A stretch of DNA of 64,000 nucleotides from a virus (IMGVR_UViG_3300022937_000008:50292-114291), one strand, 5' to 3'; positions 3,315 through 29,612 are shown, counted from the first letter of the stretch. Numbers and translations: made by a program. Notes: generated by a model from the letters alone, not told the origin.

Positions 3315-3345
3315 TATTTATGCCTTAAGCTAGAAACGGTAAATA
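3315..3345. promoter_or_regulatory. Divergent late promoters for gp13 (-, 3315-3320) and gp14 (+, 3340-3345)
   Basis: Back-to-back TAAATA motifs in a 44-nt intergenic gap. Confidence 0.7.
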
Positions 3346-11516: not shown

Positions 11517-11568
11517 TATTTATCTAATGCCATATCTTTCACTATCACGCTTACAGCGCCTATAAATA
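11517..11568. promoter_or_regulatory. Divergent late promoters: TAAATA (-, 11517-11522) and TATAAATA (+, 11561-11568)
   Basis: Full T4 late consensus TATAAATA precedes the oxygenase/halogenase operon. Confidence 0.75.
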
Positions 11569-11573
11569 TGCAT

Positions 11574-12152
11574 ATGAAACTCTTAAAAGACATTGGAATA
11601 TTCGAGAGCGCAGTAACTGACGAAACCTGTGATAAATTGATTGAATATTATGATCAACTAACAGATTTAGGTATGTCACATACTAGAATTAGCACTAACG
11701 ATTCTCCCGGGCACCTAAAAAAGGACTCTGCTGCATTTTTATTCGAACCTCCAGCACTTAATCTTTCCACAGAAAACCCTGCGGTTAGGGACAGTGTCCA
11801 GCAAATTATTTATTGTTGGGAACAATATATAGATCATTACAGTGTATTATCATCTGTCGATCCACACAGAATTTACTATATGAAACTGCAAAAAACCCTA
11901 CCAGGAGAAGGTTATCATGTATGGCATTACGAATCTGATAACCGAGAACGTTCAGGTAGAGTTGCTGCGTGGGGGTTATATCTTAACACTGTCGATGAGG
12001 GAGGAGAAACCGAATGGCTTTATCAGTCTGTAAGGGTTCCTGCTACAAAAGGTACATTAGCAATTTGGCCAGCCGGTTATACTCATACACATAGAGGTAA
12101 TCCACCTCTAAGTGGTGAAAAGTATTTGTTAACAGGTTGGATCGAATACTAA
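11574..12152 (+). CDS. 2OG-Fe(II) oxygenase (prolyl-hydroxylase-like)
   Basis: YHVWHYE, LYLN..EGGET, THTHRGNPP..KY; start moved to ATG 11574 because 11568 overlaps the promoter. Confidence 0.88.
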   Translation: MKLLKDIGIFESAVTDETCDKLIEYYDQLTDLGMSHTRISTNDSPGHLKKDSAAFLFEPPALNLSTENPAVRDSVQQIIYCWEQYIDHYSVLSSVDPHRIYYMKLQKTLPGEGYHVWHYESDNRERSGRVAAWGLYLNTVDEGGETEWLYQSVRVPATKGTLAIWPAGYTHTHRGNPPLSGEKYLLTGWIEY

Positions 12153-12778
12153 TGAACAAAATTAAACTTTTTCCTATAGAATTATTCGAATTTAAAAAAG
12201 AATTTGATTTTGATCAAATTATAGTAGACTGCGAAAAATATGCTGATTTGATTAAACATTCTGATGTTATTTCATCAATGAGAAATCTACACGATAAGCC
12301 TGAATTGAAAGAATTATTTGATTGGTTTAGACAGTGTTTAGATGAAATTAGATTGAAGCAAAAATATGACTGCGATAGTTTTGAAATAACAAGTAGTTGG
12401 TTTAACAGATCATTACCTCAATCTCAAATGTCATTGAATTTGCATAGACATAGTATGAGTTTCTTTAGTGCAGTTTTTTATCTTACTGAAGGATCTCCTA
12501 CAGTGTTTGAAGATCCGGTAATACATCGTACACAAGCACAACTTGAAGTTTTAAGAGAACTAGATAAAGATTCAAGCCCGCATCAAAGTATAGAAGCAGA
12601 ACCAGGAAAGTTAATTATTTTTCCTAGTTGGCTTTTTCACTTTAGTGCTCCACACATAGGCGATAAAGATCGTTACGTTATTAGTTTTAATACTATGCCG
12701 CAGGGGCTTGTAAATTATAAATTAGCAACAGATAGCGTTGCCTCTATTAAAATATTGAATAAGGATAAAGGATGGTAA
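12152..12778 (+). CDS. 2OG-Fe(II) oxygenase (HxH type, TIGR02466-like)
   Basis: SWFN, HRH, FSAVFY, GKLIIFPSWLFH, RYVISFN; TAATG coupling at 12150-12154. Confidence 0.85.
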   Translation: MNKIKLFPIELFEFKKEFDFDQIIVDCEKYADLIKHSDVISSMRNLHDKPELKELFDWFRQCLDEIRLKQKYDCDSFEITSSWFNRSLPQSQMSLNLHRHSMSFFSAVFYLTEGSPTVFEDPVIHRTQAQLEVLRELDKDSSPHQSIEAEPGKLIIFPSWLFHFSAPHIGDKDRYVISFNTMPQGLVNYKLATDSVASIKILNKDKGW

Positions 12779-14256
12779 AAGACCTAATTGTGTTAGGCGG
12801 CGGCAATGCTGGTCTTATGACAGCATTATACCTTAAAGAAAGTATTCCTAATCTTAACCTAACTGTAATTAAATCATCCAAGATTGGAACTATCGGTGTT
12901 GGCGAAGGATCTACTGAACATTGGAAAATGTTTGCTTCTGCAACTAGAATTTCAATCGTAGATATGATAAGAGAGTGCGGTGCTACATTTAAGATAGGAA
13001 TTAAGTTTGAAAATTGGCATGGTGATGGAACTAGTTACTATCATAGTTTGCCTGAAGCTCTAGTAGACACAGATAGTTATACAGGTATTCCGTATGCTAT
13101 GCTTAAACTTATTGCAGATGGTACAGGCACAGAAAATCTGCACTGGCAATTGCCTATGGACGGATATATTAGAGAACCGTTAGATCAATACTATCAGTTT
13201 CATTTTGACAGCGAAAAATTAAACACGTATCTTCTAAAAAAGTGTGATGAAAGAGATATTAAAGTTGTTGATGCTGAGATCAATAATTGTGTATTAGATA
13301 ACGAAGGGTTTATTTCCTCTATAGTCGATGACAATGGGCTATCATATTCAGCAGATTTCTTTATAGACAGCAGTGGATTTAAAAGAGTACTTGCATCAAG
13401 ACTTGGAGCAGAATGGGTTGATTGGTCAGAGTACTTACCTACAAACAGTGCGTTGGCTTTTCAAACACCATACGAAGAAAATATTCCTCCATATACACTA
13501 TCTCGTTCTATGAATGCTGGATGGATGTGGAGAGCTCCTGTACAGGATAGATTCGGTAACGGATATGTTTATGATGATAGATTTATTTCAGAAGAAAATG
13601 CATTAAAAGAAGTACAACAATACTTTGATTTTCCTTTAAACATAGGACGTAGAATCAAATACACTTCAGGAAAAGTAAACAAAGCATGGATTAAAAATTG
13701 TGTTTGTATTGGATTAAGCAGTAACTTTGTTGAACCGTTAGAAGCAAGTAGCATATCAACTACTATACAACAGAGTAGACTACTAGCAAGTTCTCTTTGG
13801 AATTGGAATAGATCAGATCAAGGAACAATTAACAAATATAATGAAATTGTTGATGACATGATGTTTAATATTTTAGACTTTATACAATTACATTATTATA
13901 CTCAAAGACAAGACACTAAGTTTTGGAAATGGTGTAAGAATGAAATGAAGATTACAGATTTTAATAAAGAGAATTTATCAAACTTTAAAAATAATTTTAT
14001 TAGTCAAACATTATTACCAGAAGACGGAACGTTCGGAACCTATAGAATTTATGATTGTTTAAATTGGATTCAAGTAATGCACGGGTTGCGTATGTTTAAT
14101 ATAGAAAATATCAAGAAGATATATAATAGTCATACCCATTTAAAAAATATAGAATTAGAATTTTTGCAATTGCCAAGTCAACCAGATGAAACATGGATTA
14201 CTTGTCGTGATGCTGTAAATTTAGTCAAGAACAGTGTAACGGAAATTAAGTTATGA
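12772..14256 (+). CDS. Flavin-dependent (tryptophan) halogenase family, copy 1
   Basis: GGGNAG, GVGEGS, ATFKIGIKF (catalytic Lys position), DSSGF, WMWRAP, FVEPLEAS. Confidence 0.9.
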   Translation: MVKDLIVLGGGNAGLMTALYLKESIPNLNLTVIKSSKIGTIGVGEGSTEHWKMFASATRISIVDMIRECGATFKIGIKFENWHGDGTSYYHSLPEALVDTDSYTGIPYAMLKLIADGTGTENLHWQLPMDGYIREPLDQYYQFHFDSEKLNTYLLKKCDERDIKVVDAEINNCVLDNEGFISSIVDDNGLSYSADFFIDSSGFKRVLASRLGAEWVDWSEYLPTNSALAFQTPYEENIPPYTLSRSMNAGWMWRAPVQDRFGNGYVYDDRFISEENALKEVQQYFDFPLNIGRRIKYTSGKVNKAWIKNCVCIGLSSNFVEPLEASSISTTIQQSRLLASSLWNWNRSDQGTINKYNEIVDDMMFNILDFIQLHYYTQRQDTKFWKWCKNEMKITDFNKENLSNFKNNFISQTLLPEDGTFGTYRIYDCLNWIQVMHGLRMFNIENIKKIYNSHTHLKNIELEFLQLPSQPDETWITCRDAVNLVKNSVTEIKL

Positions 14257-15761
14257 TTAGATCATTATGTGTACTAGGTGGAGGAACTGCTGGATTAATT
14301 TCTGCATTAATGATGCGTAAAGCATATCCTACTTTAAAAATTACAATATTAGAATCGTCTAAGATAGGTATTATTGGTGTAGGTGAAGGCAGTACAGAAC
14401 ACTGGAAACCTTTTATGGAATATATCGATGTTGATGTTCCTACAATTGTAAGAGAGTGCGGAAGTACATTTAAAATAGGTATTAAATTTACAAACTGGAA
14501 CGGCGACGGAAAATCTTATTGGCATAGTTTAACAGAACAGTATAACACTTTACATCAAGATAACGATGCCCCATTAAGTTGGTTTAGATACACAGGCGAG
14601 AATTGGGATCCTGAAGAAACTGCTTGGGATTTATCAAGAAATAGCAAACATCCTGAGCCTTTCCATGAAATTATTTCTCAATATCATTTTGATACATTTA
14701 AATTAAACAAATTTTTTCATAAGTTATGTGCAGAAAGAAACATAGAAGTTATTGACACAGATATATCTGATGTAATCGTTGATAAAGATGGCTATGCTGA
14801 TTACTTAATAGATGAACACGGTAAACAATATAAAGCAGACTTTTACATTGATAGTAGCGGCTTCAGAAGAATTATAAGCAGTAAATTAGGTGCTAAATGG
14901 GTTGATAAACAAAAACAATTACCAATGAATAGTGCTATTGCATTTCCAACAGGTTACACTGAAAACATTCCTTCCTATACTGAAGCAACAGCATTAAGTA
15001 GTGGATGGGTATGGAGAATTCCAACACAAGAACGATATGGAAATGGTTATGTTTTTTGTGACAACTTTATCAATGAAACACAAGCATACGATGAAGTTTC
15101 AAAGCATTATAAAGAAAATTTAAAAATTACTCAAGAATTAGAAATAGGTAGAAAAGTAAAATTTAGTGCAGGATATTTAGATAAATTCTGGATTAAAAAC
15201 TGTTTAACAGTTGGGCTATCAGGTATGTTTGTTGAACCATTAGAAGCAAGTAGTATAGGTTCTACAATACAAGAAATTAGATTAGCTATTCCTAGTTTCC
15301 ATTACTGGACTCGAGGAGAAACAATAACAGAAAATGTTTTTAATGATAGAATGATTAGAATAGCTGAAAATATTGTAGACTTTATTCAATTACACTATAT
15401 TACTAAACGCAATGATACTGAATTCTGGAAATGGGTCAACAAAGAAATTGTTTATACAGATTTTATTAGAGAAAATTTAGAATACTTTAAAAAGAATGGT
15501 GTTAATTCACAAATGTTCGGAATAGAACCATTGTATATGTTTTCTTATCTAAATTGGAGTCAAGTAATGCACGGTCTATCATTATTTGATTATGATGCTC
15601 GCAAGAAGTATTGGGAAGAATTTTGGAGTAAAGAACATTCAGAAAATTTGGATAATTTATTTAAACACGGCAATGCAGTAGATATGAGTACTGTTCGAAC
15701 ACATAGAGAAGCATTAAATATTTTAAAAGAAAGATATTTGGAAGTACGTTATGAATTATAA
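14253..15761 (+). CDS. Flavin-dependent (tryptophan) halogenase family, copy 2
   Basis: GGGTAG, GVGEGS, STFKIGIKF, WVWRIP, FVEPLEAS. Confidence 0.9.
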   Translation: MIRSLCVLGGGTAGLISALMMRKAYPTLKITILESSKIGIIGVGEGSTEHWKPFMEYIDVDVPTIVRECGSTFKIGIKFTNWNGDGKSYWHSLTEQYNTLHQDNDAPLSWFRYTGENWDPEETAWDLSRNSKHPEPFHEIISQYHFDTFKLNKFFHKLCAERNIEVIDTDISDVIVDKDGYADYLIDEHGKQYKADFYIDSSGFRRIISSKLGAKWVDKQKQLPMNSAIAFPTGYTENIPSYTEATALSSGWVWRIPTQERYGNGYVFCDNFINETQAYDEVSKHYKENLKITQELEIGRKVKFSAGYLDKFWIKNCLTVGLSGMFVEPLEASSIGSTIQEIRLAIPSFHYWTRGETITENVFNDRMIRIAENIVDFIQLHYITKRNDTEFWKWVNKEIVYTDFIRENLEYFKKNGVNSQMFGIEPLYMFSYLNWSQVMHGLSLFDYDARKKYWEEFWSKEHSENLDNLFKHGNAVDMSTVRTHREALNILKERYLEVRYEL

Positions 15762-17289
15762 TGCAGTGATTTTAGGTGGCGGTTCCGCTGGCTGGTTAAC
15801 AGCACTATGGGTTAAGAAATTTTGGCCTAATCTCAAAATTGCTATCGTTGAAAATCCTAAGAAACCTCCTATTATTGCAGGAGAAAGTGGAACGACTACG
15901 TTTGTAGATCTATTAAGAAAGATTGACATAGACAAAGATGATTTTGTTACAAAGGTGTTTGCTACACCTAAGTTAGGTGGAAAATTTACAGACTGGAACG
16001 GTGTAGGGACAGAGTTCATACATTGTTTACAAACAGATTATGCACCTTGGTTAGATGGATGGAGCGATTATTACGATACTCCGGAGTCTCAGCCTTTACT
16101 GTTTGGTAATATGCTAAACATCATGCAACGAGAAAGAGAAAAAGATACATATCTAAAAACATTAATAGCAAATAATGTTCCTTTGTCAGATGCATTCTAT
16201 GCAAATCAATTTATAAAAAATAATAAAGTTCCTTTCGGTTCTAGTACACACAACCTGCCTGTTATTCCTATGTGGCATTTTGAAAGTAGATCAGCTGCTG
16301 CTTATTTTAAAGAAATAGGACTATCAAGAGGAATAGAACTTATCGAAGGAGAGTTTCAAAGTGCAAAATTAAAAACTGACGGAAACTGTGAATCAATCTT
16401 ACTAGATGAAAATAGAGAAATAACAGCAGATTGGTTTTTTGATTGTAGTGGTTTTGCTAGATTACTTTTAGAAAAAACCATGAAGGAACCTATTTTAGAT
16501 TATACAGATTACTTTCCAGCTAGAGCAGTAGTTGCCTGGTGGGACGATCCTTGTTACTGTGTTACAACAAATGCTATTGCAATGAAGTATGGCTGGAGTT
16601 GGAACATTAATCTAAGACATAGAAGCGGAAACGGTTATCTATATGATCCAGATCATTTAACATTAGATCAAGCAATACAAGAAGCGGAAAAACGATTTGA
16701 TAAAAAAATAGAACCTATAGCAAACTTTAGTTTTCAACCTGGAATGATGAGAAACACTTGGAAAAACAACGTCATAGCTATTGGTTTGAGCAACGGATTT
16801 TTAGAGCCGTTAGAAGCAAACGGGGTTGCTGTTATTATAGAAAGCCTATATGCACTACAAGATCATTGGCACCCTGAAAGAAAAGGATATGTATCTAACA
16901 GATTTAATGACAGAGTTTGGTCAGTGAGTGAAGATATTAAAGATTTCTTAGCGTTACATTATAGAGGAAAACGCAAAGACACTGAGTTTTGGCAAAGTCA
17001 TCAAAACGATGAATTTAGAATTCCGGAAACTTTAAGATTAAAATTAGAGGACTGGAAACAATGGTATTTGCACGGAGGTGCAGAACCACTTTATAACGGG
17101 TATAGTCCAACAGCATGGCTGATGGTATTACAAGCACTACAGGTATATGATCATAGCATACTTTCAGCTAGATACGAAAAACTGCTAACAATATCCTCAA
17201 ATGTGCTAAATAATAATATACAACGTTACAAACAGCTTGTTGCTCCATTTTTAACCATTGAGCAATGGGTGGATAATTATGCTAAATAG
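15751..17289 (+). CDS. Flavin-dependent (tryptophan) halogenase family, copy 3
   Basis: GGGSAGW, AGESGT, ATPKLGGKF, DCSGF, WSWNIN, FLEPLEANG. Confidence 0.88.
   Translation: MNYNAVILGGGSAGWLTALWVKKFWPNLKIAIVENPKKPPIIAGESGTTTFVDLLRKIDIDKDDFVTKVFATPKLGGKFTDWNGVGTEFIHCLQTDYAPWLDGWSDYYDTPESQPLLFGNMLNIMQREREKDTYLKTLIANNVPLSDAFYANQFIKNNKVPFGSSTHNLPVIPMWHFESRSAAAYFKEIGLSRGIELIEGEFQSAKLKTDGNCESILLDENREITADWFFDCSGFARLLLEKTMKEPILDYTDYFPARAVVAWWDDPCYCVTTNAIAMKYGWSWNINLRHRSGNGYLYDPDHLTLDQAIQEAEKRFDKKIEPIANFSFQPGMMRNTWKNNVIAIGLSNGFLEPLEANGVAVIIESLYALQDHWHPERKGYVSNRFNDRVWSVSEDIKDFLALHYRGKRKDTEFWQSHQNDEFRIPETLRLKLEDWKQWYLHGGAEPLYNGYSPTAWLMVLQALQVYDHSILSARYEKLLTISSNVLNNNIQRYKQLVAPFLTIEQWVDNYAK
17283..17288 (+). 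promoter_or_regulatory. Late promoter (TAAATA)
   Basis: Overlaps the halogenase 3 stop; followed by SD AAGGAG and ATG 17310. Confidence 0.6.
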
Positions 17290-17309
17290 TATGCAAGGAG
17301 TTAATTGTA

Positions 17310-17468
17310 ATGAAAACTTATAAGATTATTTTAAGAGTGGCACACGGAGTACTCGAAGTTAGAGAAGACACTTGTCAGGCAAGAAACGCTGAAGAAGCAC
17401 AAAAAATCTTCGAAGAAAGACACGGTGTAGAACTAATTGTTGCTGGTCCTTTGCCAGTTAGCAATTAA
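17310..17468 (+). CDS. Hypothetical 52-aa protein (missed by ORF track)
   Basis: MKTYKIILRVAHGVLEVREDTCQARNAEEAQKIFEERHGVELIVAGPLPVSN; strong SD and own late promoter; stop overlaps the convergent gene stop. Confidence 0.75.
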   Translation: MKTYKIILRVAHGVLEVREDTCQARNAEEAQKIFEERHGVELIVAGPLPVSN

Positions 17469-18091
17469 CGATCAAACCCCATTTCTTTTCTAGCAGATTC
17501 AAGCTCGTCTTTAATAGCTTGATTAACAAATTCCGAAGGTAAACCTAAACAAGGCCTAGTATCCCATTTTAAATGTGCATACGGGCCTTTTTCATCTACA
17601 TACTGTAAAAATGCCTGTATTACTTTTTGTCCAGTATACGGCTCTCTCCAATGTTCGTGTCTACGACCACTGTAGATAACTATGTCTCCAACATCTAAGA
17701 TTATTTCGTGAATGTTGCCTTCTTCATTTTTAATGTATAACGGCCAGTCTTGATCTTCTTTTGTAATAGAAACACTTACAGATATTTCAGAACTGCTACG
17801 ATCAAAGTGCTTTCCTAGTTCAGATCCGTTGTAATATATGCGAGCATAACTGTAAACAGGTACTAATTTCTTTCCTACTTTTTCACTTACTAATGGTGTA
17901 AGTTTTAGCATTAATGCTTCAAACATTAAAGGAGCATATCTTGCAAATGTATTTTCACACATATCTGATAAGTTTGCACCAGGATATAATACTTGACATA
18001 CATCGTTTTGCATTTCATATTCTAATGCCATAAACTCGCAAAGCTCTTTGCTTACGGCATTTTTAACAATAATATAATCTTCTTTCATCAT
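17465..18091 (-). CDS. 2OG-Fe(II) oxygenase (PKHD-type-like)
   Basis: YSYARIY, KHFDR..EISVS, GDIVIYSG..HEHWREP, QAFLQYV. Confidence 0.85.
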   Translation of the reverse strand: MMKEDYIIVKNAVSKELCEFMALEYEMQNDVCQVLYPGANLSDMCENTFARYAPLMFEALMLKLTPLVSEKVGKKLVPVYSYARIYYNGSELGKHFDRSSSEISVSVSITKEDQDWPLYIKNEEGNIHEIILDVGDIVIYSGRRHEHWREPYTGQKVIQAFLQYVDEKGPYAHLKWDTRPCLGLPSEFVNQAIKDELESARKEMGFDR

Positions 18092-18639
18092 ACTAACGGA
18101 ATCATACTCATGTTACCAAAAGGTCTTTCTACATAGTTTCTAATAAACTCATTATTAGGAATAGTATGTATATCAAAACCTAGTGTAGTTCTATAACCTT
18201 CGTAAGGTTCTAGTACTTCTACTTTGTGTTTTACAAATCCAGGACCAAAATATATTTGTCCGGGTTTATTTTCAATAGTCCAATTTTCAAACACTGTGTT
18301 TGTTTTTTTAGGATCTATTGATATATAGCCATGATAATCAAACTCATGTCCGTGCCAATCTAATACTTCATCGTGTTTATGATAGTTGATCCAAGATTGC
18401 AACCATAAAGGTCGATCATCGCCAAGTTCTTTTCTTACAAACTCTCTTAATTCAACATATAAAGAATACCATGCTGTACTAGGAGCAGTTAGTGTAAACA
18501 CATTATACTTGTTATAGGACCATGTACTATCTTTGTCAGGAAAGACAGTTTCAAATACCTTATGTGCTTCATTAAGGCTGTGAACTATTTCGTCGTAGTT
18601 TTCTAAAATAGTTTTAGATGTTATGAGTTTGTATTCCAT
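18088..18639 (-). CDS. 2OG-Fe(II) oxygenase-like (HxH type)
   Basis: QSWIN, WHGH, HGYISI, HKV, RTTLGFD. Confidence 0.7.
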   Translation of the reverse strand: MEYKLITSKTILENYDEIVHSLNEAHKVFETVFPDKDSTWSYNKYNVFTLTAPSTAWYSLYVELREFVRKELGDDRPLWLQSWINYHKHDEVLDWHGHEFDYHGYISIDPKKTNTVFENWTIENKPGQIYFGPGFVKHKVEVLEPYEGYRTTLGFDIHTIPNNEFIRNYVERPFGNMSMIPLV

Positions 18640-19241
18640 ATGTTTCTCAAATTCATGTTAATCACCATTCTAAATTTAGAATTTCTTGCCCATGAAGAAC
18701 TATGATAATACTTTCCAGGAAATATTAGTATTCTTCCTTTTTTAGGTGTTACTCTTTGCTTAACTGTAAAATTATTTTCTTTTATTCTAATAATATCATC
18801 TTGACCGCTACTGTATGTGTCGTTGGTTTCGTTAAAAATAACAGTGTCGCCATCGCTATCATTGACATAATATATTGCATTCCAGTGTTCAAAAAAACTA
18901 TCTATATGCGGCATATGCCAGTCTAATTTACTTACTTTGTTAGGTAATGTTAAGTTTGCTCGCATTCTAATTAACTGATTAAAAGAAACATTGGCTTGAC
19001 TTGTGATACTTAACACTAAAGGATACATTACATTGAAATGCATACTTTTAGGTTCATTATGTTCATAGAAAAAATGATTAAACCCTGCATGATTGTCTTC
19101 TTGTGTTTGAAAATCTTCATCGCCTGATACCATTGATTGATTGAATACCCAACCAAAATCCCAACCAGTCATTAAATTTAAAATGTGGTCTTGATAGTCT
19201 TTAGGTATAATATTATCAATTACAATTATATCATTAGTCAT
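18621..19241 (-). CDS. 2OG-Fe(II) oxygenase
   Basis: RMRANL, PHID, IYYVNDSDGDT, PKKGRILIF...YHSS, RMVINMN. Confidence 0.85.
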   Translation of the reverse strand: MTNDIIVIDNIIPKDYQDHILNLMTGWDFGWVFNQSMVSGDEDFQTQEDNHAGFNHFFYEHNEPKSMHFNVMYPLVLSITSQANVSFNQLIRMRANLTLPNKVSKLDWHMPHIDSFFEHWNAIYYVNDSDGDTVIFNETNDTYSSGQDDIIRIKENNFTVKQRVTPKKGRILIFPGKYYHSSSWARNSKFRMVINMNLRNIWNTNS

Positions 19242-19755
19242 GTACTGCTACTCCATAGAAGTTTATAAACAAACTACTATCTTCTTTAGTTTCTCCGTAA
19301 AATTTTTCAATCTTATGAGGTTTTTCAGGTTCAAATATAACACATCTATTAAACACATTTTCTACTTTAATAGAAGGAACAATAGCATTTGATACTTTAC
19401 TATAGAATGTTATTCCTGAATTTTCAGGAGGATTAGGATTTAAAAATATTGTTCCTGCTATATTGTACATTCCATTTAATTCAACTATTTCTGATGTATG
19501 TTTACTATCAACTAAATTAAAATCACAATGCACAAAATTAAATCTATATTTGTTAGGCACATGAACTATTAGTTTTGCAAGAATTGTATCAAACAAATTA
19601 AAGTTTATTTCGTCAAGAGTTTTTGAACGCAATCCGTAATACGCATCATTATCTTGTTCTAAATAATCTAATTTTAAAGCACTGTGTCTAACAAGTGTAG
19701 GTGCTTCAAAAAAATCATCTATAACTTTTACAGGTTGTTTAACGTCTTTGATCAT
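19234..19755 (-). CDS. 2OG-Fe(II) oxygenase-like (DUF6445-like), HxD motif missing
   Basis: VIDDFF..P, GLRS, AGTIFLNP, ENVFNRCVIF..PH; paralogue of the next gene. Confidence 0.7.
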   Translation of the reverse strand: MIKDVKQPVKVIDDFFEAPTLVRHSALKLDYLEQDNDAYYGLRSKTLDEINFNLFDTILAKLIVHVPNKYRFNFVHCDFNLVDSKHTSEIVELNGMYNIAGTIFLNPNPPENSGITFYSKVSNAIVPSIKVENVFNRCVIFEPEKPHKIEKFYGETKEDSSLFINFYGVAVHD

Positions 19756-21769: not shown

Positions 21770-22364
21770 CTGTCCTAAAATATTTAACATTCCAAGAAAT
21801 AGAAATTCTATCTTCGTCGGTACTATTTCTTTCTACACCGTGCGGTAAGTTTCCAGGGAATATTAAAATTTTTCCTGTTTCTGCTTCATATCTTATTGCA
21901 CTTGCACTTATTGCTGTGTGTTGCTCAATCGGTGCTCTCGAAGCAACTATAAAATCTGCATTGTAATCTTTATAAAAAATTATTCCACCTTGGTCTGGAG
22001 TTGCTTTAACATAAAAGGCTCCACTAATAAAAGAATTATCGTGGATATGAACACTATTTGTATCGCCTTTTTTATTAATATTGGCCCAAAGATTTTCAAT
22101 TACAATAAATCCTGCATCTTGATTATAACCATAATCAATTATGCATCGTTGCGCTTGTTCTAATATTAAATCTTCTAAAGGTTTCATTTCAGGATAAGTT
22201 CCTGGACGGAAATCCATTGACTGCCAGCCGCCTTGATTACTTAAATATCTACCTTTTGTATCTTGTTCGTATAATTTATAAACAAGTTTTTCAATACTAT
22301 CAGTATCAATATTAGTTGTTGTCCACCATACTGGAGTAGGAAAGAAATGATCAAAGTGCCACAT
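21738..22364 (-). CDS. 2OG-Fe(II) oxygenase (TIGR02466-like)
   Basis: FPTPV, SNQGGWQS, WANIN, HIH, ISGAFYV, IFPGNLPHGV, RISISWN. Confidence 0.88.
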   Translation of the reverse strand: MWHFDHFFPTPVWWTTTNIDTDSIEKLVYKLYEQDTKGRYLSNQGGWQSMDFRPGTYPEMKPLEDLILEQAQRCIIDYGYNQDAGFIVIENLWANINKKGDTNSVHIHDNSFISGAFYVKATPDQGGIIFYKDYNADFIVASRAPIEQHTAISASAIRYEAETGKILIFPGNLPHGVERNSTDEDRISISWNVKYFRTDDDRYFPKNS

Positions 22365-23164
22365 TATCTAATAACCTCCCCAAACGTTTTAGGTGGAGAT
22401 AAATGTGAAAATGCAAATGCATGACTCCATCTAAAGTCTACGTTTTCAGAAATCACTGCACTGTGACAAATATTAGCATGATACATAGTCATTTTACCTT
22501 TAATACTTGGTGCTTGTCCTTTATATTCAAACCCCCATTCTGCTAATTCTTCGTCTTTCATATTAAACCAGCTCGGTGCTCTAAAAGGTTTTTCAGCCAT
22601 TGCTCTCCATTTTTCAAACATAGGATGTGTTTGATCTGTTTGAAAATCATATACACTATCCTTTAATACTCCATTATACTTATAAAGTTTTGTACTGCTA
22701 TCTTTAATATCGTGATCTGTAAACCAAAGGTTAGCAACTAATCCTTCAGGGTAATCAACGTGAGGTATTCTCCAACATGAAATAGGTCGTGCTCTATCTT
22801 TGTAATAAACATTCCCCCATTCATGTATCTGTGGTTCAAATATATCAGGATTAGAATGCTGAATATAGAAATCTCTAATTAACACACATATATCTTGATA
22901 AACCCAATTAGGAAGATGTACAGTGTCAAAAGGATTAGGATCAAAATTATCAGGATGATTATTATCTTTTACAATAGGAAAACATTTAATTAACTCTTGA
23001 AAAGTTTCAAAACCTTCTTCTGTTTTAAAAGGATGATCAGCAATCCAAAACCCTATTCCGTCACCTAGGTCTGTGTATTCAGCATTTAATTCGTAAGGTT
23101 TTTTAAATTTAAAAACTTTATGAAAGTTATTTGCGTCAGGATTACAAACTTTAAAATCTATCAT
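22364..23164 (-). CDS. 2OG-Fe(II) oxygenase-like
   Basis: IPHVD, LVANLW, TKLY, MTMY..ICHSA. Confidence 0.7.
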   Translation of the reverse strand: MIDFKVCNPDANNFHKVFKFKKPYELNAEYTDLGDGIGFWIADHPFKTEEGFETFQELIKCFPIVKDNNHPDNFDPNPFDTVHLPNWVYQDICVLIRDFYIQHSNPDIFEPQIHEWGNVYYKDRARPISCWRIPHVDYPEGLVANLWFTDHDIKDSSTKLYKYNGVLKDSVYDFQTDQTHPMFEKWRAMAEKPFRAPSWFNMKDEELAEWGFEYKGQAPSIKGKMTMYHANICHSAVISENVDFRWSHAFAFSHLSPPKTFGEVIR

Positions 23165-23742
23165 TTTATATTAAACGTCATTACTATTCTTTCTTCGTTG
23201 GTATTATTAGGCTGTACTCTATGCTTTAACCAACCAGGAAATATTAATACATCATTAGTTTCAACAGGCAATTCGGTATAGTTCCTTTCTCCGATAATAG
23301 GAAAAGAGGTTTTATGATATTCCAGAGGATCTCTAAATTCGATATTACCGGAGTTAGGAGGACATTTAACATAACAACTTGCTACCCAAGTAGCAAAGTT
23401 ATGTTGATGTTCTAGTGTATAACCTGTTTTAAAGTGTCTATTAAACCAAGAACCTTGCACCATAGACTGTCTTTCATAGAAGTTATGGTCGTCTTTTATT
23501 TGTGTTAACCTATCCCCGAGCCAGGCTTGAAAGTCGGAGAGTTCCATCCAAGTGTGAGGTTGCAACATTTCATCATTAGAAACAGTAGATATTGCATCTC
23601 CTGCTTCTAAACTAGAATTCTGATCAACGTGTGATATTGCTTCTTCTATTCTTGGACGTAGTGATTCGTAATTAAACTCGTAACTATACTTGTAAATGAA
23701 TGGCAAGAATAAATGAACACCGCCATTATTCACTGCTTCCAT
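23161..23742 (-). CDS. 2OG-Fe(II) oxygenase (HxH type, TIGR02466-like)
   Basis: SWFN, HQH, SGNIEFRDP, LIFPGWLKHRV, RIVMTFN; start moved to 23742. Confidence 0.85.
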   Translation of the reverse strand: MEAVNNGGVHLFLPFIYKYSYEFNYESLRPRIEEAISHVDQNSSLEAGDAISTVSNDEMLQPHTWMELSDFQAWLGDRLTQIKDDHNFYERQSMVQGSWFNRHFKTGYTLEHQHNFATWVASCYVKCPPNSGNIEFRDPLEYHKTSFPIIGERNYTELPVETNDVLIFPGWLKHRVQPNNTNEERIVMTFNIK

Positions 23743-23986
23743 CGTTTTGACCCTGTTCCTCAAGCAAATCGACAGCTAATTGTATACCCATCATTGTACC
23801 TTCCATCTTTAGTACATCTTGAGACAGTTCTTGTCTTTTGCTAAAGTCAATTGATGTAATGCCGTATGGATTCAATTTAACGTTTGCAAAATCTTCTTCT
23901 AGTTTTGCGAGTTCTGCTTCTGCTGCTGTTTTTTGAATTTTTACATTCTCAATAGCACCTAACAGTTTTCCTTTTACTTTTTCCAT
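23726..23986 (-). CDS. Hypothetical coiled-coil protein
   Basis: 86 aa with heptad-like pattern; SD AGGA. Confidence 0.7.
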   Translation of the reverse strand: MEKVKGKLLGAIENVKIQKTAAEAELAKLEEDFANVKLNPYGITSIDFSKRQELSQDVLKMEGTMMGIQLAVDLLEEQGQNDGSSE

Positions 23987-23991
23987 TGTTA

Positions 23992-24774
23992 TTATCCTCT
24001 GTGTTTATACTTAGTTAGAATTTTAGAAGCTCTTTGCAGTCTTGAAGACAGTTGGTCCGTTTCTAAAAATATAGAATTGGCTGCAAAGTTATATGCTCTT
24101 TCTTTTTGGTAATCTAACTCATCTGCATTTTCAATACTAACATCAAACGAATTATATTGCAAGTCTTTTCTTTTGATTGGTATGTATTGGCAAAGTGGAG
24201 TTCCTGCTCGAATTAACGTTTCTCCATTTAGTTGTTTCCAAAATAATTGCACGTTAACAACGTGTGAATATCTTGGATCTAATATTCCAATAGCTGCTTG
24301 GAATCTGCTTTCATTGTTATATGTTACAGGTAATTGCATAAAAACAATGTCATCACTACATTCAACTCTCCACGGAGTTTCAACTTTAATTACTGTTCTT
24401 AGTGTATCTTCTGCACTGTCTAAAATAGGATCAGTTTGTGACGAATCGTGTGAAGCAATATAAGATTCAGTTCCAGGCATTCCTTTGTCAAATTGAATTG
24501 GTTCTCTCCAACTAAAACTTGCTCCGTCACCAGTAGTTTGAATTACAAAATCTGCTGGAGCCGTAATAATCCATCCTGTTGAAGCAATTTTTAAAATGCC
24601 CGGGCATTGCTTAACTGGTCTTACATTTGGCGGAGTTTCTGATTTGGTAAAAGGTCTCTTTAATTCTACACTTCTAATAGGAGGATATAAATCCATAACA
24701 CCTGGAAATGTAGAATAAAATCTTATATAAGGCTTCTTATCAAAATTAAACCAATTTTTAATCTTGTTAAGCAT
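23992..24774 (-). CDS. Hypothetical protein (DUF6065-like), a type often found beside phage oxygenases
   Basis: KQCPGI...GWII, PW, GILD, IRAGTPLCQYIPIKR; start probably 24774. Confidence 0.6.
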   Translation of the reverse strand: MLNKIKNWFNFDKKPYIRFYSTFPGVMDLYPPIRSVELKRPFTKSETPPNVRPVKQCPGILKIASTGWIITAPADFVIQTTGDGASFSWREPIQFDKGMPGTESYIASHDSSQTDPILDSAEDTLRTVIKVETPWRVECSDDIVFMQLPVTYNNESRFQAAIGILDPRYSHVVNVQLFWKQLNGETLIRAGTPLCQYIPIKRKDLQYNSFDVSIENADELDYQKERAYNFAANSIFLETDQLSSRLQRASKILTKYKHRG

Positions 24775-24775
24775 A

Positions 24776-26398
24776 CTACTCACTATCGTATTCGTCTTTT
24801 CCGCCATATATATTTTCTTTTAGGTACTCATAATGTGTTGGTAACTGAGCAATATAATCTGTTATGAATTGTTTATATTCTTCATGTCTGCGTCTAGTAT
24901 AACCAATTTGTTCTTCGCGAAGTTCTTGGTCCATTCTATCGCCTGTATTATAAACTAGTTCTGGAGTTCCCATTGGTCTAATTCCCATACCTGCGGCAAT
25001 AAACATATTACCGGTATAATCTAATACATAAGAACTATTACCCATAATTGCATCCATCATATGAGAATACTGTGTGTGTCGAAGTAAATACTCTCCTTGC
25101 ATCTCAGGATCATAATCATTTATTTCTGTACACCAATTCCAGTAAGGTGTATCTTGACGCATACTCCATGCATAGTGTTGTGACACAAAATCTCTAAACT
25201 TAGTAACATCGTAATCACAAGCCATATTAAAGCCTTCTCTTTCCATACGTGTTACATAACCTTCTCTTCTGTTTAATGCTTCAACTAGTTTAACAATGTT
25301 TTCGTGTGTTGTCAATAACCCAGTAGACTCAAGAGGTTCTACAAAGCCATAACTTAATCCAACACCAACAACATTTCCTTTCCATGCTCTATGACGTTTA
25401 CCGTGTTTAATTTTAATCATAAAAGGTTCAGCATTTTCAGCAACTTCAGGACTATGATATTTTGCAAGGTAATCTATAAATTCTTTTTTAGCATCTTCTT
25501 CTGTTGTGAATCTAGTAGAGAAAACATAACCAGTTCCTATTCTATTCCACAATGGTATTGTCCAAACCCAGCCATTATCTAATGCATGACAATCAGTAAC
25601 ATTATGCATTTGTGTTTTTCTGTCCGTATAAGGAATTCTAACTGCCCATGCTCTATCGTTTGCTAGATGTTTGTTGAAAGGAATAAAGTGAGATCCCATC
25701 CAATTTTCTAACATTATAGATCTAAATCCAGTACAGTCAATCCATAGATCTGATTCTAATATAGTTCCATCTTCGCAAAACACTTGTTGAATATATGTAT
25801 GTGTGTTATCTTTTTTGTGAGAATGAATATCTGCTTTAATGTGTTTAACGCCATTTGGCAAAGCAATATTATCTCTTAGATATTGACCAAACAAACTAGC
25901 ATCCATATGATATGCTGTGTCGTACTTAAAATCAAAATGTCTAATAATTTTATCTTCATTTCTAGTTTGTTTATTATACTTTGCTAGTAGTGTATTACCA
26001 GTAGCAAAGAATTCAGCGAAAGATTCAGGACCAAATTCTTTAGGATAAAGTGCAGAAAGATAAATCCAATCACTGATTCCATTAGGTTTATCTGTAAAGT
26101 CTAAGCCGTTACTAAAAGGATATTCAAAAAATGTACCGTCTTTTTCTCTAAAGTTTGTAAATCTAATAGAATTTTTGTATGTAGCATTACAAGCTGCCAT
26201 CCAATCTTCATCTTTTAAATCTAATAAGCGTAAAAATTTATTAATGTGTCCAAGTGTGCTTTCTCCGACACCTACTGGCCCTACGAACGGAGATTCTACC
26301 AGTGTTATATCTAGATGTGGGCAAAGTTTTGAAAGTGCTGCCGCTGTCATCCAACCACTAGATCCGCCGCCTACAATGGTAACTGTTTTATATTTCAT
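24776..26398 (-). CDS. Flavin-dependent (tryptophan) halogenase family, copy 4
   Basis: GGGSSGW, GVGEST, NATYKNSIRF, YHMDA, DCTGF, WVWTIP, FVEPLESTG (canonical PrnA-type motifs). Confidence 0.92.
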   Translation of the reverse strand: MKYKTVTIVGGGSSGWMTAAALSKLCPHLDITLVESPFVGPVGVGESTLGHINKFLRLLDLKDEDWMAACNATYKNSIRFTNFREKDGTFFEYPFSNGLDFTDKPNGISDWIYLSALYPKEFGPESFAEFFATGNTLLAKYNKQTRNEDKIIRHFDFKYDTAYHMDASLFGQYLRDNIALPNGVKHIKADIHSHKKDNTHTYIQQVFCEDGTILESDLWIDCTGFRSIMLENWMGSHFIPFNKHLANDRAWAVRIPYTDRKTQMHNVTDCHALDNGWVWTIPLWNRIGTGYVFSTRFTTEEDAKKEFIDYLAKYHSPEVAENAEPFMIKIKHGKRHRAWKGNVVGVGLSYGFVEPLESTGLLTTHENIVKLVEALNRREGYVTRMEREGFNMACDYDVTKFRDFVSQHYAWSMRQDTPYWNWCTEINDYDPEMQGEYLLRHTQYSHMMDAIMGNSSYVLDYTGNMFIAAGMGIRPMGTPELVYNTGDRMDQELREEQIGYTRRRHEEYKQFITDYIAQLPTHYEYLKENIYGGKDEYDSE

Positions 26399-26425
26399 AT
26401 TATATCCTTTATTAAGTACGTATAT

Positions 26426-26431
26426 TATTTA
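26426..26431 (-). promoter_or_regulatory. Late promoter (TAAATA) for the minus-strand halogenase/oxygenase operon
   Basis: CTAAATAATA just downstream of the terminator; SD AAGGA before ATG 26398. Confidence 0.65.
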
Positions 26432-26456
26432 GCTGAAGTTTTATGGTGTGATCAGT

Positions 26457-26486
26457 AAAAAAGGCACTTAAAGAAAGTGCCTTTTT
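26457..26486. terminator. Intrinsic (bidirectional-looking) terminator
   Basis: AAAAAAGGCACTT-AAAGA-AAGTGCCTTTTT. Confidence 0.85.
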
Positions 26487-26507
26487 ACCGTAATAGGGAG
26501 TGAGTAA

Positions 26508-27008
26508 TTACTGTTGGTTGCCCCACCAACCTCTGTAGCGTCTCCATGCTGGAATTTCCGGAGTACCTGGCATATTTGCTTTATCTACACTAGGTTCTTC
26601 GACAGCAGCTTTCGCTTGTAATTCTTCAAGTGTCATTGGTGGTTCTGGTGGTAGTGGTTTATCAATTAGAGCTTTTACATTTGTAATGTGTGTAGCCCAA
26701 GGACCATTAATCGAAATGGTTCCTGTTGCTTTTAGCTCGTCATAAATCATACCTAATTGAGCGCCAACTTCACCGTATGCAACTTTTCTTGCTACTTCGT
26801 TAGCATTTGGTGAATAAGGCATATCTCTTTCAACCCAAATCATCTCTTGTCTAGACGGAGACCATTCTAATGTCCAATCTAGTGTGATTTCATCAGGTGC
26901 ATCAACCCATTGCATATTCGCATCTGGGCCGTTGTAAATCTCATACTCTTCGCCGGGGTTTCTAATTTCGGATACCCAGCCTTGATAACCGATAAGTGCT
27001 TTTTTCAT
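26508..27008 (-). CDS. Putative tail-fibre assembly chaperone
   Basis: Follows three fibre genes; RKVAY...QLGMIY.E...W..HI..VK...KP pattern seen in fibre-associated chaperones. Confidence 0.55.
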   Translation of the reverse strand: MKKALIGYQGWVSEIRNPGEEYEIYNGPDANMQWVDAPDEITLDWTLEWSPSRQEMIWVERDMPYSPNANEVARKVAYGEVGAQLGMIYDELKATGTISINGPWATHITNVKALIDKPLPPEPPMTLEELQAKAAVEEPSVDKANMPGTPEIPAWRRYRGWWGNQQ

Positions 27009-27012
27009 AATG

Positions 27013-27867
27013 TTATTTATACTCCTCTATTACGCAAAGTCCTGGTCTTCCATTTGAACCGCGGTGTCCATGGAAGTATCCACCTGTTCCTCCTGTACCT
27101 GGAGCAGAGTGTCCTTGATGGTTGTGAGCAAAGTGTCCTCCCTGTGGGTGACCGGAAGGTGCTGCACCTCCAAAATATGTTGTTCCGCCTGGTCCAAAAC
27201 TATCGTGATGGGCGCCGCCACCACCTTGGTGAATATTTAAATTTCCTCCACCGGCACTGCCGCTTACGCCGCCCGAGTGGTTGTTCTGTCTATTAGCACC
27301 GTGGCCGCCTTGAGCGGACATATATGGTCCAAAACTAGAACCGCCGCCATTGCCAGCTCTACCGTTATAGTAAGTTCCGCTGGATTCTCCTGAAATACTT
27401 ACTGATACTGAACCGATGCTTGTTACATCCATAATTCTTTCTGAGTATCCACCAGCACCACCTGATTCTCCGTGACCTGATCCGCCACCTCCACCAGCAA
27501 CTAGTTTAACTCTAATATATCTTACACCAGATGGTCTATTCCAAGTGCCACTACCTGTAAACACTTGCATTCCACTAAAACCAACTTGTGCATATTCTAG
27601 TGCATTGTTAGCAGAGTTAGTTCTTAAAACTGTGTTATTTCCGCCAACACTTGTAAGTCCTGTACCACCTTTTGTTACCGGAATAGTACCTGTTACAACA
27701 GATGAGCCTAAATTTACTGCATTATTTGCTAGTTTACCAGCTGTAACTGCTGTGCCTGCAACATCGTCAGCAACAATACTAGTATTTGCAATTTTTCCTG
27801 TCTGAATAGTACCGTCGACAAACGATACCCCAGTTAGTTGTTTTAGTGTTTGATAATTAAATGCCAT
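27013..27867 (-). CDS. Gly-rich, His-rich fibre/adhesin-like protein, paralogue C
   Basis: MAFNYQTLK start, GGTG linker, FTGSGTW..P.GV..GGGGG Gly-rich domain; 13 His. Confidence 0.8.
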   Translation of the reverse strand: MAFNYQTLKQLTGVSFVDGTIQTGKIANTSIVADDVAGTAVTAGKLANNAVNLGSSVVTGTIPVTKGGTGLTSVGGNNTVLRTNSANNALEYAQVGFSGMQVFTGSGTWNRPSGVRYIRVKLVAGGGGGSGHGESGGAGGYSERIMDVTSIGSVSVSISGESSGTYYNGRAGNGGGSSFGPYMSAQGGHGANRQNNHSGGVSGSAGGGNLNIHQGGGGAHHDSFGPGGTTYFGGAAPSGHPQGGHFAHNHQGHSAPGTGGTGGYFHGHRGSNGRPGLCVIEEYK

Positions 27868-27889
27868 CTTTATTTCCTACTCATATTTA

Positions 27890-28747
27890 TTAATAGAACT
27901 CGGTAATAACTACCAAACCAGGACGTCCATTTGAACCTCTATGTCCACTAAAGTATCCTGATGTTCCACCAGTTCCTGGTGCTGAATGTCCTTGGTGATT
28001 GTGAGCAAAGTGTCCACCTTGTGGGTGTCCTGCTGGTGCTGGGCCTCCCCAAAAACTCGATCCGCCCATTCCTGACGAACGTTGTTCGTGACTACCACCT
28101 GCACCACAGTAAATATTTAAATTTCCACCTGATCCTACGCCAGGTAATCCACCATTATGCTGGTTGTGTCTATTGGCACCATGACCGCCACTTGCAGAGC
28201 AGTAAGGTCCAAAACTAGAACCTCCGCCATTTCCGCCTGCGTTAGAATAATATGTTCCGCCACTTTCTCCTGATACACCAACTGATACTGAACTTACACC
28301 AGTTACATCAACAATTTCTTCTGAGTATCCTCCAGCAGCGCCTGACTCTCCGTGGCCTGAACCACCTCCGCCACCGCCTTGTACTTGTACATAAACATAA
28401 CGTACACCTGCTGGTTTGTTCCAAGTGCCGCTACCTGTAAAAACTGTCATTCCTCTAATACCAATTGGTTGGAATGTTAATCCGTTATTTGAACTGTTTA
28501 CTGTTAAACCTCTATAAGCACCTGCAAAACTTGTAATTCCAGTACCACCTTTAGTTGTTCCTAGTGATCCTGATGTTGTTGAACTTCCTAGGTTAACAGC
28601 ACCTGTTCCTAATTCTGTTCCTGTGATTGTATTATCAGCAAGTTGAGCAGTATCAATAGCACCAGTAGCAAAGTCACCGCTATTAACAGTTAAGTCTAAT
28701 AACGATTCGTTTGTTAATTTTTTAAGTGTTTGATAATTAAATGCCAT
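27890..28747 (-). CDS. Gly-rich, His-rich fibre/adhesin-like protein, paralogue B
   Basis: Same architecture; HPQGGHFAHNHQGH; 11 His. Confidence 0.8.
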   Translation of the reverse strand: MAFNYQTLKKLTNESLLDLTVNSGDFATGAIDTAQLADNTITGTELGTGAVNLGSSTTSGSLGTTKGGTGITSFAGAYRGLTVNSSNNGLTFQPIGIRGMTVFTGSGTWNKPAGVRYVYVQVQGGGGGGSGHGESGAAGGYSEEIVDVTGVSSVSVGVSGESGGTYYSNAGGNGGGSSFGPYCSASGGHGANRHNQHNGGLPGVGSGGNLNIYCGAGGSHEQRSSGMGGSSFWGGPAPAGHPQGGHFAHNHQGHSAPGTGGTSGYFSGHRGSNGRPGLVVITEFY

Positions 28748-28760
28748 CTATTTCTTGCTC

Positions 28761-29612
28761 CTAATAATAATTTGTTACTACAACCATACCTGGTCTTCCG
28801 TCTGAACCTCTATGTCCGTGGAAGTGTGCGCCTGCACCACCTGTACCTTGTGTACAATGGTTTTGGTGATTGTGAGCAAAGTGTCCACCTTGTGGGTGAT
28901 TTCCAGGTGCGCCTCCACCAAAGAACGTATTAGCACAACTCTGAGCACTTCTTGCGTGATGACTAAATCCGCCGCCTTGGTGAATATTTAAGTTACCGCC
29001 GCCTGCGCCACCACTAACACCACCTGAGTGTTGATTTTGTCTATTAGCACCATGTCCTCCTTGTGCAGAAAGATATGGTCCAAATGATGATGTATTACCA
29101 TTACCGCCTCGGTTAGCGTAGTATGTTCCGCCACCTCCGCCGCCAATGCTAATACCTACTGAACTAATTCCAGTAACGTCTAAGAATCTTTCACCGTAGC
29201 CACCGGCTCCGCCACCTTCTCCGTGACCTGATCCACCACCACCGCCACCTTGTACTTGTACCTTAATGTATCGTACACCGGATGGTCTGCTCCATGTACC
29301 GTTACCTGTCCAAACTTGTATACTAGCAACACCATGATTATCTGTTGTTAAGCCACTTCCAGTACTTCTTACAATTCTGTAAGCACCGCTAGTACTAGTT
29401 AAACCAGTACCACCTTGTGCAACACCAGCTGTGCCTGTAACTTTTGCTCCGCCTAAATCAACAGAGCTAGGAGCCATCTTTGCAGCTGAAATTTCACCTG
29501 CACCGATTTTTCCTGCTGTAACTTGCAAGTTACCAATATCTTGAGAAGCTATTGTACCGTCAACAATTGCCTGGTTAGATATCTTCTTAAGTGACTGATA
29601 ATCAAATGCCAT
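28761..29612 (-). CDS. Gly-rich, His-rich fibre/adhesin-like protein, paralogue A
   Basis: Same architecture; HPQGGHFAHNHQNH, AHFHGH; 15 His. Confidence 0.8.
   Translation of the reverse strand: MAFDYQSLKKISNQAIVDGTIASQDIGNLQVTAGKIGAGEISAAKMAPSSVDLGGAKVTGTAGVAQGGTGLTSTSGAYRIVRSTGSGLTTDNHGVASIQVWTGNGTWSRPSGVRYIKVQVQGGGGGGSGHGEGGGAGGYGERFLDVTGISSVGISIGGGGGGTYYANRGGNGNTSSFGPYLSAQGGHGANRQNQHSGGVSGGAGGGNLNIHQGGGFSHHARSAQSCANTFFGGGAPGNHPQGGHFAHNHQNHCTQGTGGAGAHFHGHRGSDGRPGMVVVTNYY

Follow-up and report, generated by a model that had tools for sequence, protein, structure and literature searches.

The window examined here is a stretch of 64,000 nucleotides (nt) from the viral record IMGVR_UViG_3300022937_000008 (50292-114291), corresponding to the terminal 64 kb of a linear IMG/VR record of 114 kb. 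Protein searches place the source phage among the T4-like cyanomyoviruses (Kyanoviridae). Within the window, positions 11568-26398 hold an enzyme island in which genes for four flavin-dependent halogenases and about twelve putative Fe(II)/2-oxoglutarate (2OG) oxygenases are arranged in two convergent operons. The remaining genes of the window encode neck, sheath-stabilizer, baseplate, portal, protease, major capsid, and giant fiber proteins, which places the island inside the late structural region. A first-pass annotation, generated by a model from the sequence of this DNA, had described the island as lying between fiber genes, and its flanks indeed consist of fiber or structural genes. The two convergent operons it reported are equally real: neighboring genes overlap by 1-53 nt, and the stop codons of the opposing operons overlap at 17465-17468.

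Halogenases and oxygenases of the island

Four intact genes match the Trp_halogenase family (PF04820) at E 4e-84 to 3e-103, with scores of 283-347 bits against a cut-off of 21, in agreement with the number of halogenases proposed earlier. Three of them are encoded on the plus strand (12772-14256, 14253-15761, and 15751-17289), and the fourth (24776-26398) is the first gene of the minus-strand operon. The latter is an ortholog of VirX1, the flavin-dependent iodinase of Syn10: it occupies the genomic position of Syn9 gp42, matches VirX1 (PDB 6qgm) over its full length at E 2.4e-191 (residues 2-533 against 3-529), and finds its closest matches in S-CREM1 (59.6% identity) and in Syn9 and Syn10 (about 53%). 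In an alignment with Syn9 gp41 and gp42, the GxGxxG FAD motif, the catalytic Lys (K79 equivalent), and the EPLE Glu are kept in all four enzymes. The WxWxIP motif is intact in the VirX1 ortholog and in 14253-15761, and altered to WMWRAP in 12772-14256 and to WSWNIN in 15751-17289. The three plus-strand halogenases are distant from VirX1 (E about 1e-45) and nearer to bacterial Trp-halogenase-like enzymes. Their close relatives were found in only three of the fetched contigs (L093-L095), at the same convergent end, where the left neighbors are neck and sheath genes, not fibers. No Flavin_Reduct domain is present in the 114-kb record, and the predicted halogenation would presumably draw on a host reductase.

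The first-pass annotation had also counted twelve 2OG-Fe(II)/JmjC proteins. Nine of these are assigned by Pfam to 2OG-FeII_Oxy_3/_5, JmjC_2, or DUF6445; the other three, which have no Pfam match at E<=0.01, are probable members by motif and profile links, and a total of twelve is plausible. The plus-strand operon opens with a prolyl-hydroxylase-like enzyme (PF13640; 11568-12152; 36.5 bits at E 9.5e-9, where the cut-off is 27), followed by a protein of the PF13759/TIGR02466 type (12137-12778). On the minus strand, in the direction of transcription, lie the genes for a PF13759 oxygenase with an HxH...H motif (23161-23763), a probable oxygenase of the gp46 family (22364-23164), a TIGR02466/PF13759 oxygenase (21738-22364), a JmjC-type oxygenase (PF08007/Cupin_8; 21050-21790), a 2OG_3 oxygenase (20452-21099; 26.0 bits, just under the cut-off of 27), a DUF6445 oxygenase (19752-20459), a short DUF6445 copy (19234-19755), a 2OG_5/_3 oxygenase (18621-19241), a phrog_2696 protein (18088-18639), and a "ferrochelatase"-labeled probable 2OG oxygenase (phrog_2954; T4-GC615; 17465-18091).

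Metal-binding residues are strongly conserved in most of these families. H144, D146, and H208 of the JmjC-type enzyme are invariant in 44 orthologs, and the HxD...H triads of the 18621, 19752, and 20452 types are invariant or near-invariant in 54-63 orthologs (kept in 53 of 54 for the 19752 type). Among the three proteins lacking a Pfam assignment, the "ferrochelatase"-type enzyme has H95, D97, H147, and R149 invariant in 10 orthologs, its best Pfam match being PF13532 at E 0.11; the gp46-family protein has an HxD...H motif and an Arg invariant in 46 orthologs, with an ESM-Atlas link of 0.95 to DUF6445/2OG_3 clusters; and the phrog_2696 protein, a probable cupin/2OG-like paralog, is connected by hhalign (82-89% probability) to the PF13759 group and shows no clear metal triad. 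Family profiles of the gp46 and "ferrochelatase" types returned no matches among PDB sequences. Each oxygenase paralog has its own ortholog lineage in other phages.

The two proteins 12137-12778 and 23161-23763, both of the PF13759/TIGR02466 type, read H-x-H, not H-x-D/E, at the first metal motif, and in the latter H119, H121, and H181 are invariant in 45 orthologs. The corresponding segment of 21738-22364 reads H-I-H-D, in which the acidic residue may be kept. It is possible that the H-x-H paralogs, annotated as 2OG oxygenases, have a variant metal site.

Two small genes complete the operons. An 86-residue protein homologous to Syn9 gp44 (23726-23986, minus strand) is always located between gp43 and the first oxygenase. 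A 52-residue open reading frame (ORF) on the plus strand (17310-17468), preceded by an AGGAG ribosome-binding site and by CTAAATA 22 nt upstream, ends in a stop codon overlapping that of the opposing operon and has a weak positional homolog in one relative (L094).

Late promoters and conservation across relatives

Late-promoter motifs had been noted in front of both operons, and both are present. An exact copy of the T4-type motif TATAAATA heads the plus-strand operon at 11561-11568 and ends 5 nt upstream of the ATG at 11574, which suggests a leaderless mRNA or a very short leader. On the minus strand, the variant CTAAATA (26426-26432) is located 27 nt before the ATG of the VirX1-type halogenase. 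The ATAAATA heptamer is rarer than expected by chance, with 12 copies in the window where 26 would be expected, and 11 of these lie directly upstream of genes in the correct orientation; in this form, (N/T)ATAAATA non-randomly placed just upstream of genes, T4-type late-promoter motifs are found in the window. This agrees with the late promoter consensus published for cyanomyoviruses, NATAAATA (PMC2984593). Motifs at 3315-3321 (minus), 11562-11568 (plus), and 27014-27020 (minus) each end 5 nt before their ATG, which points to leaderless or near-leaderless late mRNAs; TAAATA starting at -11 before gp40 recurs in relatives L013-L015, L076, L081, and L082.

A terminator-like intrinsic hairpin (GGCACTT...AAGTGCC followed by a T-run; 26455-26490, minus strand) lies downstream of the gp40-like gene that precedes the halogenase, and is conserved in relatives. 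Spacers between the two genes were compared from about 45 distinct relatives with diverged flanks; nearly all keep the terminator hairpin and, after it, a late-type motif ([TCG]ATAAATA, CTAAATA, or GGTAAATA) whose distance to the halogenase ATG is 26-49 nt. In the cultured relatives Syn9, S-CREM1, S-RIM44, P-TIM40, and S-WAM1 this gap measures only 10-42 nt, and Syn9 carries GATAAATA before gp40; judged by this layout, the halogenase operon of the cultured phages is a continuation of the fiber operon, whereas the window has its own late promoter and terminator at this point. Late expression of the enzyme operons, proposed earlier from the two motifs, is well supported at the sequence level by the promoter motifs conserved in about 45 relatives and by read-on from the fiber genes in the cultured ones. 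Text searches of the literature yielded nothing usable on the expression of prnA or 2OG genes in cyanophages. Cyanophage halogenases are not all late, since in S-MbCM6 (L011, 7305-7407) a distant halogenase sits together with an upstream T4-GC942 gene behind a near-consensus sigma-70-type promoter (TTGACA-17-TATAAT).

The minus-strand operon is collinear gene for gene with Syn9 gp42-gp54 and S-CREM1 ORF69-80, at 40-60% identity, and matches S-RIM44, P-TIM40, and S-WAM1 in part. The gene order of Syn9 gp40-gp54, the VirX1 region of Syn10, and S-CREM1 ORF68-80 is the same, including the terminal "ferrochelatase"-type protein, as is the position after the fiber and Gly-rich adhesin genes. Compared with the Syn9 and S-CREM1 regions, the window adds the convergent operon with its three halogenases, two oxygenases, and 52-residue ORF, and contains an extra short DUF6445 copy; the 18088-type gene is placed elsewhere. 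In addition, 80 related IMG/VR loci were retrieved via the gp40-like protein. All 80 share one order, namely giant fiber, p106, p150, three Gly-rich adhesins, gp40, and then the enzyme genes, which begin with one or two VirX1-type halogenases, gp43, and the 86-residue protein and continue with the oxygenases of the 23161, 22364, 21738, JmjC, 20452, and 19752 types and onward. The core of the module comprises a VirX1-type halogenase, gp43, the 86-residue protein, and about ten Fe(II)/2OG oxygenases that diverge from one another, and it is always found directly downstream of the tail-fiber block in Syn9-like phages. By these sequence comparisons, the island is an expanded copy of a conserved Syn9-like cyanomyovirus enzyme module and not a one-off; its unusual part is the plus-strand operon with two oxygenases, three halogenases, and the 52-residue ORF.

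The first-pass annotation had suggested testing whether the enzyme repertoire co-varies with fiber type. The fiber module and the enzyme core occur together, in the same order, in all 80 relatives, which is not decisive; the variable features, i.e., one or two VirX1-type halogenases, an extra 74-residue ORF, and an inserted oxygenase, could not be clearly linked to the type of adhesin.

The guanine-cytosine (GC) content is 0.33 in both enzyme operons and 0.39-0.42 in the flanking fiber genes. The same fall, from 0.43 to 0.35, occurs in 18 relatives, where gp40 and the halogenase lie on either side of the boundary. A foreign origin of the operons was considered on this basis and rejected as weak, since the Gly-rich fiber genes raise the GC content on the far side of the boundary and so account for part of the difference.

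Smaller clusters occur in other loci. Contigs L096-L107 carry small groups of "ferrochelatase"-type and PF13759-type oxygenases with or without a halogenase, one of them (L098) resembling podovirus pelagiphages. In phage 023Pt_psg01 (L108, MW574966.1 42697-46376) an oxygenase cluster is situated between structural genes and a tail-fiber-like gene. The literature already lists cyanophages whose 2OG oxygenase genes number 10 to 24 (PMC9964418).

The gp40-like and gp43-like companions

Two genes beside the halogenase, encoding the gp40-like and gp43-like proteins, are fixed companions of the module that had not been remarked before. The gp40-like gene (phrog_1787; 26508-27008, minus strand; 166 residues), a homolog of Syn9 gp40, lies 5' of the halogenase. 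A separate copy of TATAAATA (27014-27021) precedes its ATG by 5 nt, and the gene also has a terminator to itself. Among 50,697 phage records, gp40-like proteins were found in only 20. A VirX1-type halogenase is encoded in all 20, and wherever this was checked the gp40-like gene is just upstream of the halogenase gene or genes. The protein contains 9 Trp residues (5.4%), of which W45, W58, W104, W155, and W161 are invariant in 34 homologs, and ends in a conserved P-x-W...G-W tail, whose P-x-W is kept even in orthologs at about 37% identity. Structural comparisons gave weak links to fibers: BFVD returned "tail fiber assembly" proteins at E 0.017-0.05 only, the best PDB structural match was the cyanophage Pam3 fiber 7ypx_a (Z 4.2), and a Foldseek search of the PDB with the gp40 model found nothing significant. 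Its position after the adhesin genes would suit a tail-fiber assembly protein. The gp40-like protein is a probable fiber-module protein resembling an assembly chaperone, and a candidate substrate or partner of the halogenase. Complex prediction for the VirX1-type halogenase with the gp40-like protein gave scores of 0.00 and 0.01, the mark being 0.32, which carries no weight either way.

Upstream of gp40, at 27013-29612 on the minus strand, profile matches identify three paralogs of adhesin type (Gly_rich_2; phrog_863) that are Gly-rich (24-25% Gly) and His-rich. A tblastn search with a Gly-rich adhesin returned 4 records only, with the low-complexity filter as the likely cause. Five relatives (L019, L075, L084, L088, and L092) contain, between gp40 and the halogenase, an extra conserved ORF of 73-74 residues (MPTLTAVSPV...), mostly in loci with two VirX1-type halogenases; the window lacks it.

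The gp43-family gene (DUF6065-like; 23992-24807, minus strand), located 3' of the VirX1 ortholog, shares 32 nt with the halogenase gene, an arrangement suggestive of translational coupling between the two. An AlphaFold2 model of the protein (predicted local distance difference test, pLDDT, 86.5) has a core that, by structure prediction, adopts the dUTPase jelly-roll fold. In a Foldseek search the top 50 matches were all dUTPases (best E 5e-5), with the match spanning nearly the whole dUTPase chain, and VIA-align gave Z 8.1-9.7 for 10 dUTPases over 108-142 aligned residues and about 6 for dCTP deaminases, with pp71 and ORF10 also among the matches. Neither the sequence nor the family profile matched a dUTPase in Pfam or among PDB sequences. 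The conserved segments APADF, G-I-L-D-x-x-Y, and A-G-T-P-L-x-Q are reminiscent of dUTPase motifs 1, 3, and 4; the P-loop-like motif 5 is not evident in the family. The first-pass annotation had listed scaffold-building enzymes, transporters, a flavin reductase, and a DNA-modification partner as missing. The first two are indeed not found among the genes scanned, and the reductase domain is lacking from the whole record; the last point overlooks this dUTPase-fold gene.

In phage records gp43 occurs only beside VirX1-type halogenases, except for two weak matches in haloarchaeal viruses. A scan of bacterial genomes yielded four contigs only, of which three clearly carry the phage module and the fourth is probably phage; judged by these searches, the family appears essentially viral. 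Two nominally bacterial contigs, CAYVOK010000041.1 (L109, an Acidimicrobiaceae metagenome-assembled genome, MAG) and NZ_RMVE01000006.1 (L110, Nonlabens xiamenensis, 188 kb), each contain the complete cyanophage fiber-halogenase-oxygenase module; the latter contig is P-TIM40-like and as large as a whole cyanomyovirus genome. Both look like phage contamination or mis-binning in the assemblies. In a Lishizhenia MAG contig (L112, 1533-3624), three tandem gp43-like paralogs adjoin a "ferrochelatase"-type oxygenase on the opposite strand.

Candidate substrates of the enzymes

Late timing, the protein-hydroxylase families of the oxygenases, and the lack of a scaffold, carrier, or export gene favor macromolecular substrates made late in infection; among the window genes scanned, no scaffold-forming, ligase, methyltransferase, carrier, or export gene was found. 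Most enzymes of the JmjC_2 and prolyl-hydroxylase-like families hydroxylate proteins. VirX1 has been described with an active site that is large and open, and with no biosynthetic cluster linked to it (PMC8407142), which also fits a protein substrate. The ten distinct oxygenase paralogs, each conserved with intact triads, likewise count for a protein substrate. We therefore lean, tentatively and at less than even probability, toward the view that the enzymes modify late proteins, those of the fiber module in particular. The enzymes would be made late in the cytoplasm and would use host FADH2, halide, O2, Fe(II), and 2-oxoglutarate to halogenate aromatic side chains and hydroxylate other side chains on macromolecules synthesized at the same time, with each oxygenase paralog serving a distinct site or residue type. 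The prime candidate substrate would be the gp40-like protein, which is rich in Trp and whose C-terminal P-x-W/G-W tail is conserved and exposed; the adhesins and giant fibers would come next. A fuller version, in which a dedicated late multi-enzyme system halogenates and hydroxylates the phage's own fiber-module proteins with the dUTPase-fold protein as an accessory subunit, is unlikely to hold in all its parts.

Partial precedents exist for such chemistry. Flavin-dependent halogenases acting on Trp in peptides and proteins, including C-terminal Trp, are established (PMC10286304, PMC10858898, bioRxiv 10.1101/2025.01.12.632611); among the enzymes of peptides made by the ribosome and modified post-translationally (RiPPs), SrpI, MibH, and ChlH halogenate Trp in ribosomal peptides or proteins, SrpI at a C-terminal Trp, which offers a mechanistic precedent for the action proposed on the gp40 tail. 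MibH (5uao) gave E 2e-45, a poorer score than those of the free-Trp halogenases. In contrast to RiPP systems, the window has no leader/core precursor, peptidase, or exporter among the genes scanned, and the only small ORFs, the 86-residue gp44 homolog and the 52-residue ORF, contain no Trp and no recognizable leader/core layout; instead of a secreted peptide, the enzymes would presumably act on a structural protein that is folded. The label "RiPP-like" given to the island earlier should accordingly be read as an analogy only. With the prolyl 4-hydroxylase of PBCV-1 and the JmjC ribosomal oxygenases of the YcfD/RoxA type, the island shares PF13640, PF08007, and HxD...H triads; those are single enzymes with known targets, whereas the window holds a battery of about 12.

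Several observations weigh against modification of fiber-module proteins. The fixed synteny and the co-occurrence of gp40 with the halogenase may reflect one inherited block and not independent events. Halogenase/2OG pairs also occur away from fibers: S-B64 has one among its replication genes, the pelagiphage HTVC008M has one between terS and terL, and in S-MbCM6 the pair sits beside psbA under the early-type, sigma-70-like promoter. The GC content of gp40 is 0.42, as in the fiber module, against 0.33 in the enzyme operons. Given its fiber-like composition and weak resemblance to tail-fiber assembly proteins, the Trp residues of gp40 may be purely structural, and the Gly/His-rich adhesins have only 1-2 Trp each. 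The coupling of the dUTPase-fold gp43 to the halogenase hints at a nucleotide ligand, and PF13759-type paralogs show weak NCBIfam matches to carbohydrate- and flagellin-modification clusters. VirX1 iodinates or brominates many free heteroaromatic substrates in vitro (PMC8407142). Oxygenases and halogenases are not flagged as virion proteins in the virion proteomes summarized in Sullivan 2010 (PMC3037559), which is neutral as regards enzymes.

The in vitro range of VirX1 on free aromatics, together with the resemblance of the three additional halogenases to free-substrate Trp halogenases, would suit a different role, in which free host metabolites such as indoles, Trp-derived compounds, or other aromatics are halogenated and oxidized to a product, such as an antibiotic or signal, of benefit to the infection or the lysate. 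This is the classical view of "prnA" as an auxiliary metabolic or secondary-metabolite gene, and antibiotic protection was proposed in genome papers (PMC2984593, PMC9964418). We consider this somewhat unlikely: among the genes scanned, none in the module or close to it would form or activate a scaffold, carry it, or export it; a metabolite pathway would not be expected to have about ten conserved oxygenases and no core biosynthetic enzyme; and late expression would give a metabolite little time to act. The S-SSM6a/S-SSM7 cluster (Iyer et al. 2021, PMC7824862) likewise combines a cyanophage halogenase with 2OG and cupin oxygenases, and a halogenated secondary metabolite was proposed for S-SSM6a; however, it is a different cluster, its halogenase is only 28% identical, and the features of that cluster suggestive of a metabolite, namely carbamoyltransferases, a HemK-like methylase, and HAD phosphatases, are absent from the island. 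The enzymes might instead be directed at the host, modifying ribosomal proteins or translation factors for takeover, in the manner of JmjC/YcfD-type and PHD-type enzymes, or envelope glycan and receptor precursors for late receptor masking against superinfection or trapping of progeny on debris. JmjC_2 is a ribosomal-oxygenase family, TIGR02466 paralogs also occur in marine Synechococcus, and the linkage to receptor-binding genes would suit receptor masking. Such a role is quite unlikely nonetheless: takeover functions are normally early and these genes bear late motifs, the PF13759-type matches to FlmC (flagellin modification) and to "sporadic carbohydrate cluster" oxygenase models fall far below their cut-offs, and the module has no glycosyltransferase or sugar-nucleotide enzyme.

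The gp43-like protein raises the further prospect that it binds a pyrimidine nucleotide and that the halogenase and oxygenases modify nucleotides or DNA/RNA bases, e.g., by electrophilic C5 halogenation or hydroxylation, giving a modified genome or a nucleotide-derived product. The structural matches to dUTPases, the dUTPase-like segments, and the overlap and near-exclusive co-occurrence with the halogenase favor this idea, and the 2OG superfamily includes AlkB and TET/JBP enzymes. Yet the lack of an evident motif 5 and the absence of any dUTPase match at sequence or profile level speak against a nucleotide substrate, as do the non-enzymatic dUTPase-fold proteins common in viruses, of which pp71 and ORF10 are among the gp43 matches. 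No oxygenase of the island is a member of AlkB or TET/JBP, the PF13532 match cited above being the best, and late timing and structural context are atypical for DNA-precursor pathways. We know of no halogenated phage DNA, and we regard nucleotide or nucleic acid modification as decidedly improbable. Scarcely credible, finally, is the absence of a specific substrate, whether the genes serve as a sink turning 2-oxoglutarate into succinate (Sullivan 2010, PMC3037559) or are transient, non-functional acquisitions (Sullivan 2005, PMC1079782). Order, frames, and catalytic residues are conserved in all 80 loci and in several genera at 30-60% identity, and a sink would need no ten divergent, individually conserved paralogs plus halogenases; that each paralog forms its own ortholog lineage with invariant metal ligands argues against both proposals.

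Cyanophage "prnA" halogenases and 2OG oxygenases have been cataloged since 2005-2010 without a function, dismissed as transient and later treated as auxiliary metabolic genes. In one widespread lineage these genes form a rigid operon fixed to the receptor-binding module and, by sequence evidence, late. What is new here is an expanded member of the module, which has a second operon and, in all, four halogenases and about twelve oxygenases; the kind of module was already annotated. The four-halogenase island is a source of diverse biocatalysts, and the fixed operon with its companions turns a vague annotation into concrete questions for the cultured phages Syn9, Syn10, and S-CREM1. Nucleotide or metabolite substrates, if confirmed, would also represent new biology. 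If virion proteins are the substrates, the module would reveal a new phage-surface chemistry and a natural role for VirX1; modification of the fiber module would provide the first halogenated virion and a new means of tuning adsorption and stability in halide-rich seawater.

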